Shown here: piece by piece, positions 22,229-30,158 of the stretch
Layout: each line of letters begins with the position of its first letter
How positions within the stretch are numbered: the first letter of the stretch is position 1
Source of the DNA: an uncultured Candidatus Saccharibacteria bacterium
GTDB lineage: Bacteria; Patescibacteriota; Saccharimonadia; Saccharimonadales; Saccharimonadaceae
Assembly: GCA_964468665.1 (NCBI GenBank)
Contig: CAYXTS010000001.1
Location: 3,418 to 67,417, forward strand
Direction of reading: 5' to 3'
Length of the DNA: 64,000 nt
Notes under the pieces: model-generated
The model's database searches: none
What the model was told of the DNA's origin: nothing
The model's input: the letters and a program-made list of their open reading frames with translations, nothing else
Position numbers and translations under genes: made by a program

Positions 22229-22558
22229 TTAGAAAGGAAATGAATGGGTATGGGTTGTGTCTGGGTTTGGGTTTTTGAGTTCACACCTTTCTTTGTAGCA
22301 AATCCAGTTTGCTACGGCTTTGCTTTTCTCTAATGTACAGAGCTCTTTTATTAGCTCTTCGTTTGTGCCGTAATACTTGGCCTCGAAGACAACATCTCTG
22401 TCTTCGATGAAGCTTTGGCTTGCTTCATTAAGAGGCAGGCGAGTTCCTTTCAGGACATGCCAAGCCTCGATTCTGAAACCGTTTTTTTGGAATAATTTGA
22501 TGGTTTCCTCGTAGCCGTCGACCTTGATGATGTCGACGAGAACTTGGCATTTTGCCAT
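22229..22558 (-). CDS. small hypothetical protein
   Basis: 109-aa ORF with purine-rich SD-like sequence upstream and a downstream hairpin. Confidence 0.6.
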   Translation of the reverse strand: MAKCQVLVDIIKVDGYEETIKLFQKNGFRIEAWHVLKGTRLPLNEASQSFIEDRDVVFEAKYYGTNEELIKELCTLEKSKAVANWICYKERCELKNPNPDTTHTHSFPF

Positions 22559-22682: not shown

Positions 22683-23816
22683 ATGATAAGTGTGAATTGT
22701 AGCCCGAAAGTGGACAAAGCTTCTCTTCCAAAGATTTTGGAGGAGATTTCAAAAGATGAAATGGGTGGTTGGACGGAGTTGCCGCGGGAATACGACAAAG
22801 ATGAATTTGATAGGATTAAGAAGGCGGCAGAGAAGATTAACGAGACTAGTGATTATTTAGTGTGTATTGGGATTGGAGGTTCGTATTTAGGACACAGGGC
22901 TATAATTGAGGCCTTAAGGCCAACTTCTAAAACTAAGATTGTTTATGCTGGAAATTCCTTGAGTAAGAGAGAGCTAGAACATGTAATGGCGGAGGTGGGT
23001 GATACTGATTTTTCTATTAATGTGATTTCGAAATCTGGTACTACGCTTGAGCCGGCGATTGCGTTTAATGCTTTTAAAGATAAGTTAATTCAAAAATACG
23101 GTAAGGAGGAAGCTAGTAAGAGGATTTTTGCAACGACTGATGCTAGCAAAGGGACGCTGCATGATGAGGCGGTAGCTGAGGGCTATGAAAGATTTGTGGT
23201 GCCGGATAATATCGGAGGACGGTATTCGGTGTTGACCGCGGTAGGACTGCTGCCACTTGCTGTATCAGGGGTAAATATAGATGAGCTGTTGAGTGGCGCA
23301 GTTGATGCTATGGAAAAAGATAGCGAGTCTATTGCGAAATATGCCTGGATGAGGTATGAACTTGGTGAAAAAGGATATGATACTGAGGTTTTTGCGAGTT
23401 TTGAGCCGGCAACTATGTATTTTAACGAGTGGTTGAAACAACTATTTGGAGAATCTGAGGGCAAGGATAAACAGGGTATTTTCCCAGCTTCAGTGATTTA
23501 TTCTACGGATTTGCATTCTTTGGGGCAGTTCATGCAGGATGGAAGACGGAACTTGTTCGAAACTATTATTGATTATCCGACGGATGAGATGAATGCGAAG
23601 GTTGTGCAGGCAGTAAAAATAGCACATAGAGAGGGTGGGATACCTGTGCTAGAGATAAAAGTTCCCTCGTTTGATGCGAGAGGGTTTGGTGAGCTGATTT
23701 ATTTCTTTGAACTTGCGTGTGCGATTTCGGCGAAATTGTTTGGGGTGAATCCGTTTGATCAGCCTGGGGTGGAGGCCTATAAAAATGAACTTAAAAAGTT
23801 GATGGCGGAGGGATGA
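22683..23816 (+). CDS. pgi: glucose-6-phosphate isomerase (short form)
   Basis: [42 protein letters not shown]. Confidence 0.95.
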
Positions 23817-24754
23817 TGAAAAAACGGGTGGTATTAGCACTGGGTGGGAATGCCTTGCAAAAAAATGGTGAGATGACGGCAGAGGCTCAAAAAGCGGTGG
23901 CGGCAGAAGTGGGGGAGGTAGTTGCGAGCTTAGCTGATAAATATGAGATTATTGTGGCGCATGGGAATGGTCCACAAGTGGGAAATATTTTGATTCACGA
24001 AGAGTCGGCCAGTACGGATAAGGCGCCAGCGATGCCACTCGAGACGGCGGTGGCAATGAGCCAGGGACAGATTGGTTATTGGTTGACACAGGCGATTAAC
24101 AATGCGTTTTTGAAGAGGGGTCGGAATGTTAAGGTGGTGACAATAGTGTCGCAAGTGGTGGTTGATAAAAAAGATGCGGCTTTTCGGCATCCGACGAAGC
24201 CGATTGGGCAATTTTACTCGCAAAAAGAGGCAGCTAAACTGGCTAAGGATAAGGGGTGGACAGTGAAAGAAGATGCTGGTCGGGGGTGGCGTAGAGTGGT
24301 AGCGTCGCCAAAGCCGGTTGATATTGTAGAGAAGAAAGCGATTTTGGATTTAGTGGAGGACGGAGTGATTGTGGTGGCAGCTGGTGGGGGAGGAATTCCG
24401 GTGTATCGGACGCGGGTGATGAAGCGATTAAAGGGGGTTGATGCAGTGATTGATAAAGATTTTGCGGCGGAGAAATTAGCAGAGTTGGTAAAAGCAGATA
24501 TTTTTGCATCGGTAACGGCGGTACCAAATGTGTATGTGAATTTTGGTTTGCCAGAGCAACAGGCTCTAGGGGAGGTTTCGGTAGATGAGGTGTTGGGATT
24601 AAAGAAATTTGGCTATTTTAAGGCTGGTTCGATGTTGCCAAAAGTAGAAGCGGCGGCGATGTTTGCTAAGAAAGGTGGAGTGGGTATTATTACAAATATT
24701 GAGAATTTGAAGCTTGCTTTGGTGGGTAAGGCGGGAACAATAGTCAAGAAATAA
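23813..24754 (+). CDS. arcC: carbamate kinase
   Basis: [43 protein letters not shown]. Confidence 0.95.
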
Positions 24755-24850
24755 TATCAACCTCTGTTAAAACGGTGGAAAACTTGTGGAAAAATGAATA
24801 ATTTTTTTGTTCAGAATTTTTGTTGTGCTTATGGTAATTTTCGTATATAA

Positions 24851-25876
24851 TTGGAGGGTATGGATGGGTACACGTTAACTAATAAAATGCCAACACGTAA
24901 GGATTTTATTGATACTGCAGATTTTGATCAGGCCGAGATGATGGATATAATTAGGACTTCTCGTATTGTACGTGAGTATATAAAATCTGGTAAATATTTA
25001 AATTCATTATTTCATAAGACTTTGGCTATGTTATTTGAACAGAAATCTACTAGAACGCGGGTTTCTTTTGAGGTGGCAATGGCACAACTTGGTGGACATG
25101 CATTGAATTTGGCGCCAGGGGCGATTCAACTAGGTGCACATGAAACGATTGAGGATACTGCTGTAGTGCTTGGAAGAATGTGTGATATGATAATGTCTCG
25201 AGTGGATAGGCATGAATCGATTGAGGCTTTGGCTAGGTTTGCCGATGTGCCAGTAATAAATGGTATGAGCGATAGGGTACATCCAACACAGGGGGTTGGT
25301 GATATGATTACTATATTTGATCATTGGCCAGAAGAGAAAAAATTTAATGATGTGAAGGTAGTTTTTGTGGGTGATGCGACTCAAGTTTGCAATACTCTTT
25401 GTGAAATGACTACCAAAATGGGAATGAATTTTGTGCATTATGGACCAGCTAACCATAAAATTTCTGATGAGTGGCTAGAAATTGGTAAGAAAAATGTTGA
25501 AAGATATGGTGGTTCTTGTGTTTGGAGCGAAGATCAGGAGATCTTGAGGGGTGCAGATTTTATTTATACAGATGTATGGTACGGATTATATGATAAAGAG
25601 ACACCAAAAGAGGAGTATATGAAAGACTTTTATCCGAAGTATCAAGTGAATGATGAAATGATGAGAATGACTGGGAATTTGAATTGCAAATTTATGCATT
25701 GTTTACCAGCAAATAGAAATGAAGAAGTAACTGATTCGGTATTGGATGGAGTAAATTCCATAGCGTGGGATGAGGCCGAGAATCGTTTGACGGCTCAGCG
25801 AGGACTTGTTTTGTATTTCGGTCGTGTAGCTCAAATCACTCTAGATTACATAAAACAACAAAAGGAGGTTAAATAA
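24851..25876 (+). CDS. aguB: putrescine carbamoyltransferase (start uncertain, 24851-24887)
   Basis: STRTR, HPTQ and HCLP transcarbamylase motifs. QLGAHETIEDT, VFVGDATQV, DVWYGLY and FYPKYQV recall the Enterococcus faecalis-type putrescine transcarbamylase. Adjacent to agmatine deiminase. Confidence 0.85.
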   Translation: MEGMDGYTLTNKMPTRKDFIDTADFDQAEMMDIIRTSRIVREYIKSGKYLNSLFHKTLAMLFEQKSTRTRVSFEVAMAQLGGHALNLAPGAIQLGAHETIEDTAVVLGRMCDMIMSRVDRHESIEALARFADVPVINGMSDRVHPTQGVGDMITIFDHWPEEKKFNDVKVVFVGDATQVCNTLCEMTTKMGMNFVHYGPANHKISDEWLEIGKKNVERYGGSCVWSEDQEILRGADFIYTDVWYGLYDKETPKEEYMKDFYPKYQVNDEMMRMTGNLNCKFMHCLPANRNEEVTDSVLDGVNSIAWDEAENRLTAQRGLVLYFGRVAQITLDYIKQQKEVK

Positions 25877-27327
25877 TGCCAAAGAAGAAAAGAAAATTTA
25901 GGCTGTTTTCTGCGGTGCTCGCGACAGTCTGTATAATTTTGGTTGCGGATGCAATTGCTCCAACAGCATCCATTGGTAATTCGATGTATGTTTGGTGGAT
26001 TATCATGCTACTAGGGTTTTTTATCCCCTATGGTTTAATATCTGCTGAGCTTGGCACACAGTACCCATCCGAGGGTGGTATGTATACTTGGATTAAGAAG
26101 GCTTTCGGAAAGAAATGGGCTTCTAGGGTTGCTTGGTTCTATTGGGTGAATTACCCACTGTGGATTGCTTCTCTTGCAGACCTTATTACAACAATGATAA
26201 TGCAGATGTTCGGCTTTGAAATGGAAATCTGGATGGTACTTGCAATTCAAGTATTCTACATTGCACTAGTTACCATACTTGGTATGCTTCGTATTTCACA
26301 ATCGGCATGGGTATCAAATTTTGGCGCAATTATCAAGTTCTTGATTCTTGGCGGTATTTCTGCGTTAGGCCTCTATGTATTCTTTACACAGGGAACTATG
26401 AACCCAATTGAAAGCTGGCATGATTTTATTCCGCTGGCAAGTGCTGATGGTGGAGTTGACTGGGCGGGTCTTTCATTTGTTTCGCTTATTATCTTTAATA
26501 TGCTTGGTTTTGAGGTGGTTGGTACTTTTGTGGATGATATGGATAAACCTAAAAGACAAATACCGCAAGCAATTATCCTTGGTGGTATCTTGATTGCGAT
26601 TTTCTATATTTTGCCGTCGTTTGGTATGGGTGTTGGTACGTCATTTGAAGAGATACAAACAAACACTGGTTTCCTGGATTCGTATGGAATATTAATGGCT
26701 AATGCTGGTATATCTGCAGCAGCAATTAAGTCAATTATTATTATCGTGGGCGGTGCTTTTATATTGACGCTTATTTCGAACATTTCCTCGTGGAATTTTG
26801 GTGTGTATTCCGTGATTGCTTATGCGGCCGAAGACGGTATGTTCCCGAAAACTTGGAAGAAGCGTAATCGTGATGGTGTTCCATATATGGTGGGAATTTG
26901 GACGGGGATAATTGCGGCGATTTTGGCGGTGGCTGGTATTGTTTTGGCTTATTGTTTTCCAGAATGGGAAGATGGTTCAAATATGTTTTGGGCATTCTTT
27001 GATTTGTCATTGGTATGTTTGTTATTATCTTATATTCCGATGTTTGCAGCATTTATCAAGTTACATAAAAATGGTAAGCAGGTCAAAAATGGCTATTGGA
27101 TTAAAGTTGGCCCAATAATGAGGTGGATAATGGGCATAGTACCATTACTGCTTCTTGGAATTTCTCTATTCTTTACTTTAATACCGGAATTTTCATGGGA
27201 AGCAATTGCGGATAATGCAACATTACTGGTTTCATCTGGCGTATGTGTTGTGGTGGGTGAGATTATGGTTTATAACATGATAAGGAAAGATGGAAGGAAA
27301 AAATTGTTGCGTAAGGCAAGTAGATAA
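25876..27327 (+). CDS. aguD: APC-family agmatine/putrescine antiporter
   Basis: About 12 TM helices, AELGTQYPSEGGMYTW, GFEVV; lies between aguB and aguA. Confidence 0.8.
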   Translation: MPKKKRKFRLFSAVLATVCIILVADAIAPTASIGNSMYVWWIIMLLGFFIPYGLISAELGTQYPSEGGMYTWIKKAFGKKWASRVAWFYWVNYPLWIASLADLITTMIMQMFGFEMEIWMVLAIQVFYIALVTILGMLRISQSAWVSNFGAIIKFLILGGISALGLYVFFTQGTMNPIESWHDFIPLASADGGVDWAGLSFVSLIIFNMLGFEVVGTFVDDMDKPKRQIPQAIILGGILIAIFYILPSFGMGVGTSFEEIQTNTGFLDSYGILMANAGISAAAIKSIIIIVGGAFILTLISNISSWNFGVYSVIAYAAEDGMFPKTWKKRNRDGVPYMVGIWTGIIAAILAVAGIVLAYCFPEWEDGSNMFWAFFDLSLVCLLLSYIPMFAAFIKLHKNGKQVKNGYWIKVGPIMRWIMGIVPLLLLGISLFFTLIPEFSWEAIADNATLLVSSGVCVVVGEIMVYNMIRKDGRKKLLRKASR

Positions 27328-27328
27328 A

Positions 27329-27360
27329 AAAACAGCTCCTATAAAAAGGAGCTGTTTTTT
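27329..27360. terminator. intrinsic terminator
   Basis: aaaaacagctcct-ataaa-aggagctgttttt perfect inverted repeat. Confidence 0.75.
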
Positions 27361-27396
27361 GTGCTATCATTATATATAGAAAAGGAGATAATACTT

Positions 27397-28491
27397 ATGA
27401 AACTTAATTCGACGCCGAAACAAGATGGATTTTATATGCCGTCGGAGCTTACGGAGCATAAATGTACTTATTTGCTTTGGCCAGAAAGGCCTGATAATTG
27501 GCGAGGTGGGGCGAAACCAGCTCAGAAGGCGTTTCGGGAAGTAGTGGAAAAGATTGCAAAACATGAGCCAGTAGTGCTTGGCGTTAATCAATCACAGTAT
27601 TCGCATGTGTTAGGGATGAATATGGAGAATGTTTCGGTAGTTGAGATCTCGAATAATGATTCATGGATTCGGGATACAGGGGCTACTATGGTAGTAAATG
27701 GTACTGGTGAGATAAGGGCAGTTGATTGGGGCTTTAATGGATACGGAGGATTAATAAATGGTATATATTTTCCTTGGGATCTGGATGACATGATTGCTGC
27801 AAAAATGGCCAATATTGAAGGCGTTGATAGATATCGTACAGATGGTTTTGTTTTGGAGGGAGGATCTATACATTCTGATGGGGAGGGGACTTTGCTCGTA
27901 ACGGAGGAAACATTACTTGATGAGGGCCGTAATCCAGGGAAGTCTAAAGAGGAGATCGAAAAATATCTATTAGATTATTGTGGAGCGGAAAAGGTGTTAT
28001 GGATTCCGTATGGTGTCTATAAAGATGAAGATACGAATGGACACGTAGATAATATTTGCCAATTTGTGGCTCCTGGTAAGGTAGTTTTGGCTTGGGAAGA
28101 TAATCCGTCTGATCCTCAACATGAGAGGTCGGTGCGAGATTTGGAGTATTTGGAGTCTGTTACGGATGCAAGGGGGCGAAAACTTGAAATTATTAAGGTT
28201 CATGTGCCGAATGTGATTACTATTACGAAAGAAGAATCTGAAGGTGTAGATGTGGTGGAGGGTACTTTCCCTCGCAACGAAGGAGATCGTTTGCCAGCAT
28301 CATATATTAATTATTATAATTGCAATGGCGCCGTTATTTTGCCGGTATTTGATGATCCTCATGACGAGGATGCTATGAAAATTTTGCAGGAGTGTTTCCC
28401 GGATAAGGTTATTGAAACGGTGTATGCGCGCGAAATACTACTTGGAGGTGGAAATATACATTGCATTACGCAGCAAGTTCCTAAAGCTTAA
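27397..28491 (+). CDS. aguA: agmatine deiminase
   Basis: WPERPDNW, DSWIRDTG, LEGGSIHSDGEGT, DTNGHVDN, GGGNIHCITQQ (catalytic Cys). SD AAGGAG before ATG 27397. Confidence 0.95.
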   Translation: MKLNSTPKQDGFYMPSELTEHKCTYLLWPERPDNWRGGAKPAQKAFREVVEKIAKHEPVVLGVNQSQYSHVLGMNMENVSVVEISNNDSWIRDTGATMVVNGTGEIRAVDWGFNGYGGLINGIYFPWDLDDMIAAKMANIEGVDRYRTDGFVLEGGSIHSDGEGTLLVTEETLLDEGRNPGKSKEEIEKYLLDYCGAEKVLWIPYGVYKDEDTNGHVDNICQFVAPGKVVLAWEDNPSDPQHERSVRDLEYLESVTDARGRKLEIIKVHVPNVITITKEESEGVDVVEGTFPRNEGDRLPASYINYYNCNGAVILPVFDDPHDEDAMKILQECFPDKVIETVYAREILLGGGNIHCITQQVPKA

Positions 28492-28514
28492 AGAACATAT
28501 GATATAATATGCTT

Positions 28515-30158
28515 ATGGATAAACTTTCATTTGATGGGCCCGTGGTCCTTGCGATTTTGGATGGGGTGGGATTAGCGCCGGATGGGCCGGGGAATGCGGT
28601 ATCGAAAGCGCGAACTCCGTTTTTAGGACAAGCAGCAAGAGAATATTTCCATGTAGCTTTGAACGCATCGGGAAAGGCAGTCGGACTTTTGCCTGGGCAG
28701 ATGGGAAATTCGGAAGTTGGTCATAATACGATGGGGGCAGGCAGAGTGTTCAAGCAGGGTATTGCTTATGTTGAAGAAGCTTTTGCTTCTGGGGAAGTGT
28801 TTAAATCTGATGCTTGGAAGGGTGCAATTACGAGAATTTTGAGCGAGAATAAGGTTAAACTTGACAATTCTGATAATATGTGGTATAATGGAGAGATTGA
28901 GCCTGCAACTTTGCATTTTGCAGGTATTTTTTCTGATGGTGGGGTGCATAGTCATATTTCACATTTGGAGCAGATGGTAGAGGAGGCTTACAAAGAAGGT
29001 GTACGCAGGATGCGAGTGCATGCGATTTTTGATGGGCGAGACACACCACCACAGTCTGAACCTAAATATATTCAGCGTTTCGAGAATTTTGTATCGAGGT
29101 TTCCTGATGCGGATATCAAAATCGCTTCGGGCGGTGGCAGACAGACAACTGTATCAGATAGATATGAGAATGATTGGGGCGTTGTAGCTAGGGGCTGGGA
29201 TATGATGGTGAATGGAGAGGCAGATTATTACTTTAAATCTGCCGAAGAGGGGATTGTGATGCTTCGAAGAATTAATCCTTCAGTACAGGATCAAGATTTG
29301 CCGGCTTTCGTGATTGTTGACAATAATGATAAGCCAGTTGGGAAAATTAATAAAGGTGATGTATTAATCTATTTTGATTTTAGAAAAGATAGGGCGATTG
29401 AGATTGCGCAGGCGTTTACTTATTGGGATTTTCCTTATTTTAATCGTGGTTCATATACGCCAGATGATGTGTATTTTGTAGGAATGACGGAGTATAATTC
29501 GGATACGCATGTTCCGGAACATCGGCTGATAGAGCCTGAAGAGATGAACGAGACTCTGAACTGGTTTCTTAGTAGTCGTGGGATTTCTCAACTTGCGGTG
29601 AGTGAGACGTTGAAGTTTGGGCATATAACGTATTATTTTGATGGGAATAGTTACGAGAAGCACCCAGGTGAGGAGTTTATCGAAATCGAGTCATTTAAGG
29701 ATTATTCGACGAATCGTCCATGGATGAAATCGGCGGATATTACAGATGTGGTAATTGAAAATCTTGAGAAGTTTAAGTTTATTAGGTTGAATTTTCCAAA
29801 TGGGGATATTGTTGGACATACTGCGGATATGGAAGCGACTATTATTTCAGTGGAGGCAACTGACTTATGTCTAGCACGGATTGCGAAAGAAGTTGATAGG
29901 CTCGGAGGGGTTTTAGTGATTGTAGCTGATCATGGAAATGCAGAAGAACTATTGGATTCTAACGGGGTAAAAAAGACTTCTCACACAATGAATCGTGTAC
30001 CGTGCATTATATACGATAACACTTTGAATCGTAGTAAGTATCGTATGGCATCACTTGACAGACCTGGGCTTTCTAATCTTGCCTCTACGATAGCATTATT
30101 GTTAGGGCAGAGTGATTATCCGGAATCTTGGGACCAGCCGCTGATTACTGTGCTATAA
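28515..30158 (+). CDS. gpmI: 2,3-bisphosphoglycerate-independent phosphoglycerate mutase
   Basis: ILDG, QMGNSEVGH, SDGGVHSH, DGRD, DRYE, DIVGHT, ADHGNAE. Confidence 0.96.
   Translation: MDKLSFDGPVVLAILDGVGLAPDGPGNAVSKARTPFLGQAAREYFHVALNASGKAVGLLPGQMGNSEVGHNTMGAGRVFKQGIAYVEEAFASGEVFKSDAWKGAITRILSENKVKLDNSDNMWYNGEIEPATLHFAGIFSDGGVHSHISHLEQMVEEAYKEGVRRMRVHAIFDGRDTPPQSEPKYIQRFENFVSRFPDADIKIASGGGRQTTVSDRYENDWGVVARGWDMMVNGEADYYFKSAEEGIVMLRRINPSVQDQDLPAFVIVDNNDKPVGKINKGDVLIYFDFRKDRAIEIAQAFTYWDFPYFNRGSYTPDDVYFVGMTEYNSDTHVPEHRLIEPEEMNETLNWFLSSRGISQLAVSETLKFGHITYYFDGNSYEKHPGEEFIEIESFKDYSTNRPWMKSADITDVVIENLEKFKFIRLNFPNGDIVGHTADMEATIISVEATDLCLARIAKEVDRLGGVLVIVADHGNAEELLDSNGVKKTSHTMNRVPCIIYDNTLNRSKYRMASLDRPGLSNLASTIALLLGQSDYPESWDQPLITVL
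28861..28889 (+). promoter_or_regulatory. consensus sigma70 promoter inside gpmI coding sequence
   Basis: TTGACA-17 nt-TATAAT with an extended -10 (tgtgg-tataat). Confidence 0.55.

Follow-up and report, generated by a model that had tools for sequence, protein, structure and literature searches.

A complete agmatine deiminase system (AgDS) was identified in the 64,000-nucleotide stretch of DNA analyzed here (referred to as the window), which originates from an uncultured member of the Saccharibacteria. Based on gene content, phylogeny and comparison with related genomes, it is highly likely that this AgDS represents a functional system in gut members of the genus Candidatus Nanosyncoccus, and that its genes aguB, aguD and aguA, together with a pgi-linked carbamate kinase (CK) gene, entered the pgi–gpmI interval a single time, in an early Nanosyncoccus ancestor, and were mostly inherited vertically thereafter. 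The original prediction, made from the letters of the window alone, had proposed a complete AgDS in a genome resembling those of the candidate phyla radiation (CPR). The assignment of the genome to the Saccharibacteria and the agreement between family models, matches to Enterococcus faecalis structures and identities to Firmicutes clusters bear this out.

Gene Content and Proposed Pathway

Six consecutive open reading frames (ORFs) on the forward strand cover positions 22683–30158 of the window and encode glucose-6-phosphate isomerase (pgi), CK, a transcarbamylase, an APC-family permease, agmatine deiminase and phosphoglycerate mutase (gpmI). The four pathway ORFs are intact and contiguous within positions 23813–28491, bounded by pgi and gpmI as had been predicted. 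On the left flank of the insertion site, pgi (22683–23816) matched NF010697 with 491 bits (cut-off 443), and its stop overlaps the start of the CK gene arcC, also termed aguC (23813–24754; TIGR00746, 371.5 bits, cut-off 358.25), by four bases (ATGA). The genes following on the same strand are aguB/ptcA (24860–25876), assigned to a putrescine carbamoyltransferase (PTC) of 338 amino acids based on sequence, signature, tree and fold, aguD (25876–27327) for a putative agmatine/putrescine antiporter of 483 amino acids (PF13520), and aguA (27397–28491) for an agmatine deiminase of 364 amino acids (TIGR03380, 522.8 bits, cut-off 381.8). The right flank is formed by gpmI (28509–30158; TIGR01307, 369.6 bits). 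Two start codons were revised, namely that of aguB to the ATG at 24860 behind GGAGGG rather than the TTG at 24851, yielding the length of the database orthologues, and that of aguA to the ATG at 27397 behind GGAGA rather than the GTG at 27361. An adjacent gene for an AguR-type regulator was not found at the locus by ORF reading and family-model searches of the neighbours, consistent with the earlier remark that no LuxR-type AguR adjoins it. The sole neighbour without an assigned function is a 109-amino-acid ORF on the reverse strand (22229–22558), which had no family match.

Enzyme activities, transport direction and the physiological role of the system were inferred by homology to the E. faecalis chemistry. 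AguD would import agmatine in exchange for putrescine, AguA would hydrolyse agmatine to N-carbamoylputrescine and NH3, PTC would phosphorolyse N-carbamoylputrescine to putrescine and carbamoyl phosphate, and CK would use carbamoyl phosphate to phosphorylate ADP, forming ATP and releasing CO2 and NH3. Per molecule of agmatine, the balance would be one ATP, two NH3, CO2 and one exported putrescine, supplying an organism that has hardly any other energy metabolism with substrate-level ATP and a means of buffering pH. The window's genome contains this pathway in full, with single copies of arcC, the PTC gene, aguD and aguA, and lacks alternative routes: ornithine carbamoyltransferase (OTC), arcA and arcE are absent from it, and neither an N-carbamoylputrescine amidase nor an arginine decarboxylase of either pyridoxal phosphate-dependent family was found in it. 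Since arginine decarboxylase is missing, agmatine would have to enter from outside via AguD. Likewise, N-carbamoylputrescine would be processable by PTC alone because the amidase is missing, and PTC would represent the kinase's sole source of carbamoyl phosphate because OTC is missing.

Assignment of the Transcarbamylase

By its residues, its position in the tree and its predicted fold, the transcarbamylase of the window qualifies as a true PTC. The four signatures from which a putrescine-type enzyme had been predicted (QLGAHETIEDT, GDATQV, DVWYGLY and FYPKYQV) are all located within the translation of 24851–25876. The best family model was TIGR04384 (putrescine carbamoyltransferase) with 462 bits, compared to 317.7 bits for the OTC model TIGR00658, and the nearest solved structures were those of the E. 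faecalis PTC (3txx/4a8h, 385 bits versus 237 bits for the best OTC). Moreover, the protein is 56–57% identical to Firmicutes PTCs, including those of E. faecalis and Listeria, but merely 34–38% identical to the OTCs of its own genus.

PTCs are defined by Gln50 replacing the OTC lysine two residues before STRT, by the 230-loop DVWYGLY (consensus DVW(Y/W)(G/W)(V/L/I)x) replacing the SMG loop, and by helix 13, a C-terminal extension of approximately 20 residues with the motif 330-(L/f/v/i/m)xx(F/Y/L/M/v)(L/i/m) (Polo et al. 2012, PMC3282769). The window's enzyme carries FEQKSTRTR and DVWYGLY. Among the Nanosyncoccus PTCs, residues Q50, M125, Y233 and L270 are present in all 85 sequences and the exact DVWYGLY in 82 of them, whereas the four OTCs compared (three from Nanosyncoccus and one from Bacillus thuringiensis) show K, L, G and L at these positions and differ at the first three. 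A tree of 148 transcarbamylases united the Nanosyncoccus PTCs in a single clade with 100% support, nested in a clade with the PTCs of E. faecalis, E. raffinosus, Listeria and Loigolactobacillus backii that received 97% in the Shimodaira–Hasegawa-like approximate likelihood-ratio test (SH-aLRT). The OTCs of the genus were placed outside this PTC clade; the enzyme accordingly groups with PTCs and away from OTCs, as its original assignment implied. Furthermore, an AlphaFold model (predicted local distance difference test, pLDDT, 84; predicted template modelling score, pTM, 0.87) retrieved the E. faecalis PTC in all of the top 20 matches of a fold search and contains a predicted helix at residues 324–336 (pLDDT 81–91), located beyond the end of OTCs.

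The alignment to TIGR04384 spans model positions 1–311 of 330, and the shortfall of the PTC score relative to the cut-off of this model is attributed to the short C-terminus. This short tail also explains the naming of orthologous Nanosyncoccus PTCs at NCBI, which is inconsistent: dropping under the cut-off, most were named 'ornithine carbamoyltransferase' and few 'putrescine carbamoyltransferase' (database entries P0018, P0032, P0044, P0054, P0088 and P0092 versus P0114 and P0118). The same mixture of OTC and PTC names was observed for Vibrio relatives.

Agmatine Deiminase and the Putative Antiporter

AguA aligned end-to-end with the E. faecalis agmatine deiminase AgDI (2jer) with 385 bits. 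Its C-terminal GGGNIHCITQQ is identical to 2jer, and the motifs TNGHVD and (V/I)RD are conserved; for the residues in these motifs we assume the roles known from the 2jer structure, including that of the catalytic cysteine. The protein belongs to the family PF04371/TIGR03380 and is 49–60% identical to Firmicutes AguA. AguD is 39–41% identical over its full length (323–350 bits) to the permeases in the aguD position of E. faecalis, Listeria and L. backii, but matched the TyrP and GadC models with only approximately 120 bits. In a survey of 95 loci, aguD was located between the PTC gene and aguA wherever all three genes were recovered; the exceptions to the complete set were loci ending at a contig edge and two with one gene uncalled.

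Distribution, Age and Origin

The genus was determined as Candidatus Nanosyncoccus (G3 Saccharibacteria) from named relatives, which comprise metagenome-assembled genomes (MAGs) from ruminant gut and mouse gut as well as Candidatus Nanosyncoccus alces. DNA runs containing the stretch are gut metagenomes, and the genome itself comprises 816 kb in 60 contigs. AguA was detected in 29 of 53 unique Nanosyncoccus genomes (19 of 37 and 11 of 19 in the two samples), but was absent throughout 24 further families of the order and approximately 160 further genera of the class. PTC was found in at least 80 species-level genomes showing 68–87% identity.

The identities of PTC, AguD and AguA correlate with those of gpmI (Spearman rho 0.80–0.86), and the guanine-plus-cytosine (GC) content of the cluster equals that of the genome (0.410 versus 0.409), as does its GC skew. 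When the gpmI tree was rooted on sister genera, species with an empty pgi–gpmI site were basal (96% support), and the other 65 genomes formed three well-supported clades, all of which contain the AgDS. Adjacency of pgi and gpmI was also observed in one sister genus. Since the identities track gpmI, the GC content matches the genome, the PTC clade is monophyletic and the empty-site species are basal, we interpret these results as a single ancient insertion into the pgi–gpmI interval that was subsequently inherited vertically and underwent rearrangements and losses.

This reading modifies the original claim of a separate horizontal acquisition. The cluster does appear foreign to the lineage, being present in one of approximately 160 genera and missing between pgi and gpmI in the basal species. 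It does not, however, represent a separate, self-contained acquisition in this genome, but an old trait of the genus occurring in at least 80 species, at the same locus and with an orthologous kinase as the arginine deiminase system (ADS) of sister species. In the sense that its novelty would vanish were it already known as widespread, the cluster turned out to be widespread among Nanosyncoccus genomes, but no paper describing it was found. Regarding the donor of the PTC gene, the best 80 loci of a scan of named-species genomes were all from Saccharibacteria, and the cluster representatives (clustering at 50% identity) nearest to the PTC were singletons from metagenomes, including chimeric or frameshifted sequences. 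In the transcarbamylase tree, the node that places the Nanosyncoccus PTCs as sister group to the full set of canonical PTCs sampled lacks support, and therefore no donor can be named.

A Carbamate Kinase Shared with the Arginine Deiminase Module

Comparison of the 95 loci revealed four states of the pgi–gpmI site. In the empty state, pgi directly adjoins gpmI (G003, G022, G020 and G009). The ADS-only state has the order pgi-arcC-arcB-arcA-arcE-gpmI (e.g., G002), and the AgDS-only state, represented by the window and many others, the order pgi-arcC-aguB-aguD-aguA-gpmI. In the fourth state, both modules are present, with ADS genes before or after aguB-aguD-aguA (G011, G031 and others); such genomes keep separate OTC and PTC genes and two antiporters. 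The order aguB-aguD-aguA is invariant, and aguA is located directly upstream of gpmI in most AgDS-bearing loci, the exceptions being due to intervening ADS genes or other cargo, or to a contig edge. In one mouse-gut clade, the module resides between ruvB and gpmI, and pgi and arcC are located together elsewhere in the genome. In the unbiased sample of 37 genomes, AguA and ArcA showed a nominal anti-association (Fisher p = 0.04, not corrected for phylogeny), which is to be taken as a description and not as proof of exclusivity.

CK is encoded by a single gene in the window's genome. Exactly one CK was found in each of the 28 genus members possessing AguA and/or ArcA, and none in the nine possessing neither. 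The 52 pgi-linked Nanosyncoccus CKs form a clade with 100% support in which sequences of AgDS-only, ADS-only and 'both' genomes are intermixed. Moreover, the window's CK shares 81.7% identity with its counterpart in the ADS-only genome G002, compared to 77–80% for AgDS-only species at a similar gpmI distance. Judged by these sequence relationships, the CKs are orthologous whichever module is present, and the AgDS and ADS modules use the same kinase. The clade shows a weak affinity (SH-aLRT 84) to the ADS kinases found in sister genera, at thin sampling of Firmicutes. A second ADS operon resembling that of strain TM7x (arcA-arcB-arcE-arcC), with its own kinase of approximately 50% identity, is present in sister genera as well as in a small number of other Nanosyncoccus species. 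It was observed, for instance, in G018 (L036) at another site, its kinase being approximately 50% identical to the pgi-linked one, and the same kinase type adjoins arcE in G305, G309 and G317 (L137, L148 and L154). The kinases of these operons group with the sister genus g28, which suggests an independent acquisition of this ADS.

Regarding the order of events, aguB-aguD-aguA may have been grafted onto a pre-existing ADS with its kinase. The reverse order, with the AgDS arriving first, was considered in view of its presence in all three clades and of a pgi-linked ADS seemingly confined to the crown, but kinase-less arcB-arcA-arcE modules also occur at other sites outside the ruminant crown clade (G015 and G035). 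Both orderings were left standing. A tentative model, which we regard as possible but rather doubtful, considers the one CK at pgi as a hub around which the kinase-less cassettes aguB-aguD-aguA and arcB-arcA-arcE are gained, lost and exchanged between species at the pgi–gpmI site. Species might thereby match their off-host ATP supply to the guanidino substrate available from gut niche or host bacterium, and agmatine fermentation might constitute the main non-glycolytic ATP source in AgDS-only species.

Further variation was observed around arcC and within the interval. arcC is inverted relative to pgi in approximately 13 surveyed loci, mostly clade by clade; inverted repeats flanking arcC, sought to explain the two orientations, were not found. 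In L027 (4712–4798) and L042 (2732–2818), pgi and the inverted arcC are separated by a tRNA-Leu(CAG) gene. Large ORFs without identification (532–1576 amino acids) are inserted between arcC and the PTC gene in L039, L061, L078, L080, L082 and L084, and the pgi–gpmI interval therefore appears to be a general hot spot for cargo.

Evaluation of Alternative Interpretations

Several observations weigh against a functional AgDS of single, old origin. Only gut-metagenome DNA runs, and no RNA run, containing the genes were found. The genome is a MAG with 92.8% completeness and 4.2% contamination. The substrate of AguD was deduced solely from 39–41% identity and gene position. Moreover, the kinase gene is not at its canonical place after aguA, and a terminator-like, perfect 14-bp hairpin with a T-run is located between aguD and aguA. 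The PTC score of 462 bits is below the TIGR04384 cut-off of 500; compared to E. faecalis, helix 13 is approximately five and the full C-terminal tail approximately 13 residues shorter, and the tail ends before the position of the 330-LxxFL motif, so that the motif is absent and helix 13 is present in reduced form. However, the E. faecalis enzyme retained almost full activity when helix 13 was deleted (PMC3282769), and therefore no loss of function is expected from the short tail. Finally, most loci of the gpmI tree were picked for having PTC, so that loss counts and the basal position of the empty-site species need an unbiased species tree.

Among other explanations, the genes may supply the cell with the polyamine putrescine instead of serving energy conservation or pH homeostasis. 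AguA also opens a biosynthetic route to putrescine in plants and some bacteria, and putrescine is a predicted product here too. However, the biosynthetic partner N-carbamoylputrescine amidase is absent and its place is taken by genes for a phosphorolytic PTC, a kinase and an APC transporter of the exchange type; furthermore, no arginine decarboxylase for internal agmatine was found, and the kinase is kept only in genomes possessing a deiminase module, which makes a biosynthetic role unlikely. That a guanidino amine other than agmatine is the real substrate appears very unlikely: AguD is merely about 40% identical to characterised antiporters, but AguA exceeds the cut-off of its equivalog model by 141 bits and shares 49–60% identity with agmatine deiminases from Firmicutes, among them the E. 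faecalis enzyme of known structure (2jer), and the putrescine-site residues of PTC are unchanged.

The transcarbamylase might alternatively be a catabolic OTC and the cluster a variant arginine or ornithine pathway, in agreement with a score below the PTC cut-off yet above that of the OTC model (317.7 versus 280.85 bits), with the prevailing database name and with the finding that ornithine is used, albeit as a poor substrate, by the E. faecalis PTC itself (PMC3282769). Since the score of the PTC model is 144 bits higher than that of the OTC model, the specificity residues are all of the PTC type, the protein falls into the 97% PTC clade at 34–38% identity to the genus's own OTCs, its gene is always flanked by aguD and aguA, the genome lacks arginine deiminase and the short C-terminus accounts for the missing bits, this explanation is considered highly improbable. 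An artefact of binning or assembly introducing the cluster from a Firmicutes genome was also considered, as the closest characterised homologues are from Bacillota and contamination of the MAG was estimated at 4.2%. This is extremely improbable, given that the cluster resides inside a 69-kb contig between conserved Saccharibacterial genes, does not deviate from the genome in GC content or skew, shows only 39–60% identity to Firmicutes proteins and recurs in the same arrangement in at least 80 independent Saccharibacteria assemblies, including Candidatus Nanosyncoccus alces.

Comparison with Known Systems

The locus resembles aguBDAC of E. faecalis, also present in Streptococcus, Listeria and lactobacilli, in having the same four functions and the order transcarbamylase-antiporter-deiminase. 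The annotated clusters of E. faecalis, Listeria, L. backii and E. raffinosus comprise, in this order, ptcA, an APC permease gene, aguA and arcC, the record of the Listeria cluster ending after aguA. Identities to these Firmicutes clusters are 56–57% for PTC, 49–60% for AguA, 39–41% for AguD and 47% for CK, and the PTC specificity residues are identical to those of E. faecalis. In contrast to the Firmicutes, where the kinase gene is located downstream of aguA, the Nanosyncoccus kinase gene is located upstream, fused to the end of pgi (unlinked in one clade). The canonical arrangement aguB-aguD-aguA-aguC with an adjacent AguR gene was thus not encountered, with no AguR-type regulator gene adjoining the Nanosyncoccus AgDS. 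Further differences to E. faecalis are the shortened helix 13 without the 330 motif and the host of the system, an ultrasmall CPR episymbiont.

According to Tian et al. (2022, PMC8764695), the ADS of mammal-associated Saccharibacteria such as Nanosynbacter lyticus TM7x arrived by horizontal transfer and is found solely in animal-associated lineages. It follows the same logic in an episymbiont with a reduced genome, combining a deiminase, a phosphorolytic transcarbamylase, a carbamate kinase and an antiporter to gain ATP and NH3, and in Nanosyncoccus both systems have one locus and one kinase in common. The AgDS differs in its predicted substrate, agmatine instead of arginine, in its deiminase family (PF04371), in its transcarbamylase clade and in its antiporter, which is of the APC type instead of the YfcC/ArcE type. 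Most G3 genomes were reported to carry all four ADS genes, and agmatine and putrescine are nowhere mentioned in that study (PMC8764695); PTCs named as OTCs could inflate such counts.

For Listeria monocytogenes, the carbamate kinase lmo0039 of the ADI/AgDI locus lmo0036–lmo0043 is listed for both pathways (PMC6282059). One kinase hence serves both pathways, as is proposed for the Nanosyncoccus genomes containing both modules. Listeria additionally has a single transcarbamylase, lmo0036, for both, whereas Nanosyncoccus keeps OTC and PTC apart, and the Nanosyncoccus modules vary between species, unlike the Listeria locus.

Novelty and Implications

A full-text literature search did not retrieve any paper reporting agmatine catabolism in Saccharibacteria, Nanosyncoccus or Patescibacteria, and a large genome survey from 2024 does not mention agmatine or putrescine. 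The AgDS pathway itself is textbook knowledge; its presence in a CPR genus, its apparent interchange with the ADS at a common kinase and the fact that its PTC is systematically misnamed appear to be new.

Saccharibacteria possess very few ATP-making routes. The ADS was reported to support the viability and infectivity of oral TM7x away from its host, and the acquisition of this system was tied to the move of Saccharibacteria into mammals (PMC8764695). In gut and rumen Nanosyncoccus, a second pathway of the ADS type, predicted to use agmatine, is encoded by about half of the sampled species, often in place of the ADS. Gut bacteria release agmatine in quantity. Agmatine hence represents a concrete candidate nutrient for the cultivation of G3 Saccharibacteria, and putrescine and ammonia are predicted to be released into the local community. 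Putrescine export to the host bacterium in particular, as suggested originally, is a speculation. Moreover, an annotation trap arises, since PTCs scoring just under the NCBI threshold are mostly named ornithine carbamoyltransferase: surveys scoring 'OTC + CK' may count AgDS genomes as ADS-positive.

Regulatory Features and Further Observations

Owing to the overlap of the pgi stop with the arcC start, arcC is probably co-transcribed with pgi. A promoter-like element (TTGTGC-17 nt-TATAAT, 24823–24851, forward strand), read from the sequence, ends 8 nt before the ATG of the PTC gene. In 10 relatives, the same element, of the form GCTTGYGYTT-~17 nt-TATAAT, is located just upstream of whichever transcarbamylase gene, PTC or OTC, follows arcC, and in several of them the ATG follows the −10 box at a distance of 7 nt, pointing to a leaderless or near-leaderless transcarbamylase transcript. 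A generic scan for promoters and terminators yielded sites no more numerous than in shuffled sequence, and the candidate promoter of the PTC gene therefore rests on its conservation across relatives.

The hairpin between aguD and aguA (27327–27360), flanked by an A-run and a T-run, may act as a terminator or attenuator. Hairpins unrelated in sequence fill the aguD–aguA spacer in most relatives of the ruminant clade and are absent in the deeper clades. Furthermore, GC-rich palindromic inserts of approximately 100–150 nt (−46 to −62 kcal/mol) occur in cassette spacers of some species, namely between aguD and aguA in L035/L043, L044, L074, L050 and L066, and between arcC and the PTC gene in L035.

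Features of the flanking genes were also recorded. A perfect TTGACA-17 nt-TATAAT (12 of 12, with TG) is present inside the gpmI coding sequence at 28861–28889. The gpmI open frames vary from approximately 500 to 628 amino acids among relatives, with split alignments in G010, G014, G016 and G023. The pgi product comprises 377–392 amino acids in cassette-bearing genomes of the crown clade, including the window, compared to 424–426 in empty-site genomes (L031, 3856–5130; L032, 9309–10586); when aligned to NF010697, the short form splits into two stretches, pointing to the internal loss of approximately 45 amino acids. On the scale of the window, GC skew is strong and uniform over positions 1–54000 (+0.2 to +0.44 per kb) and collapses after approximately 54 kb, and nearly all long ORFs in the inspected part (15–36 kb) are located on the forward strand.

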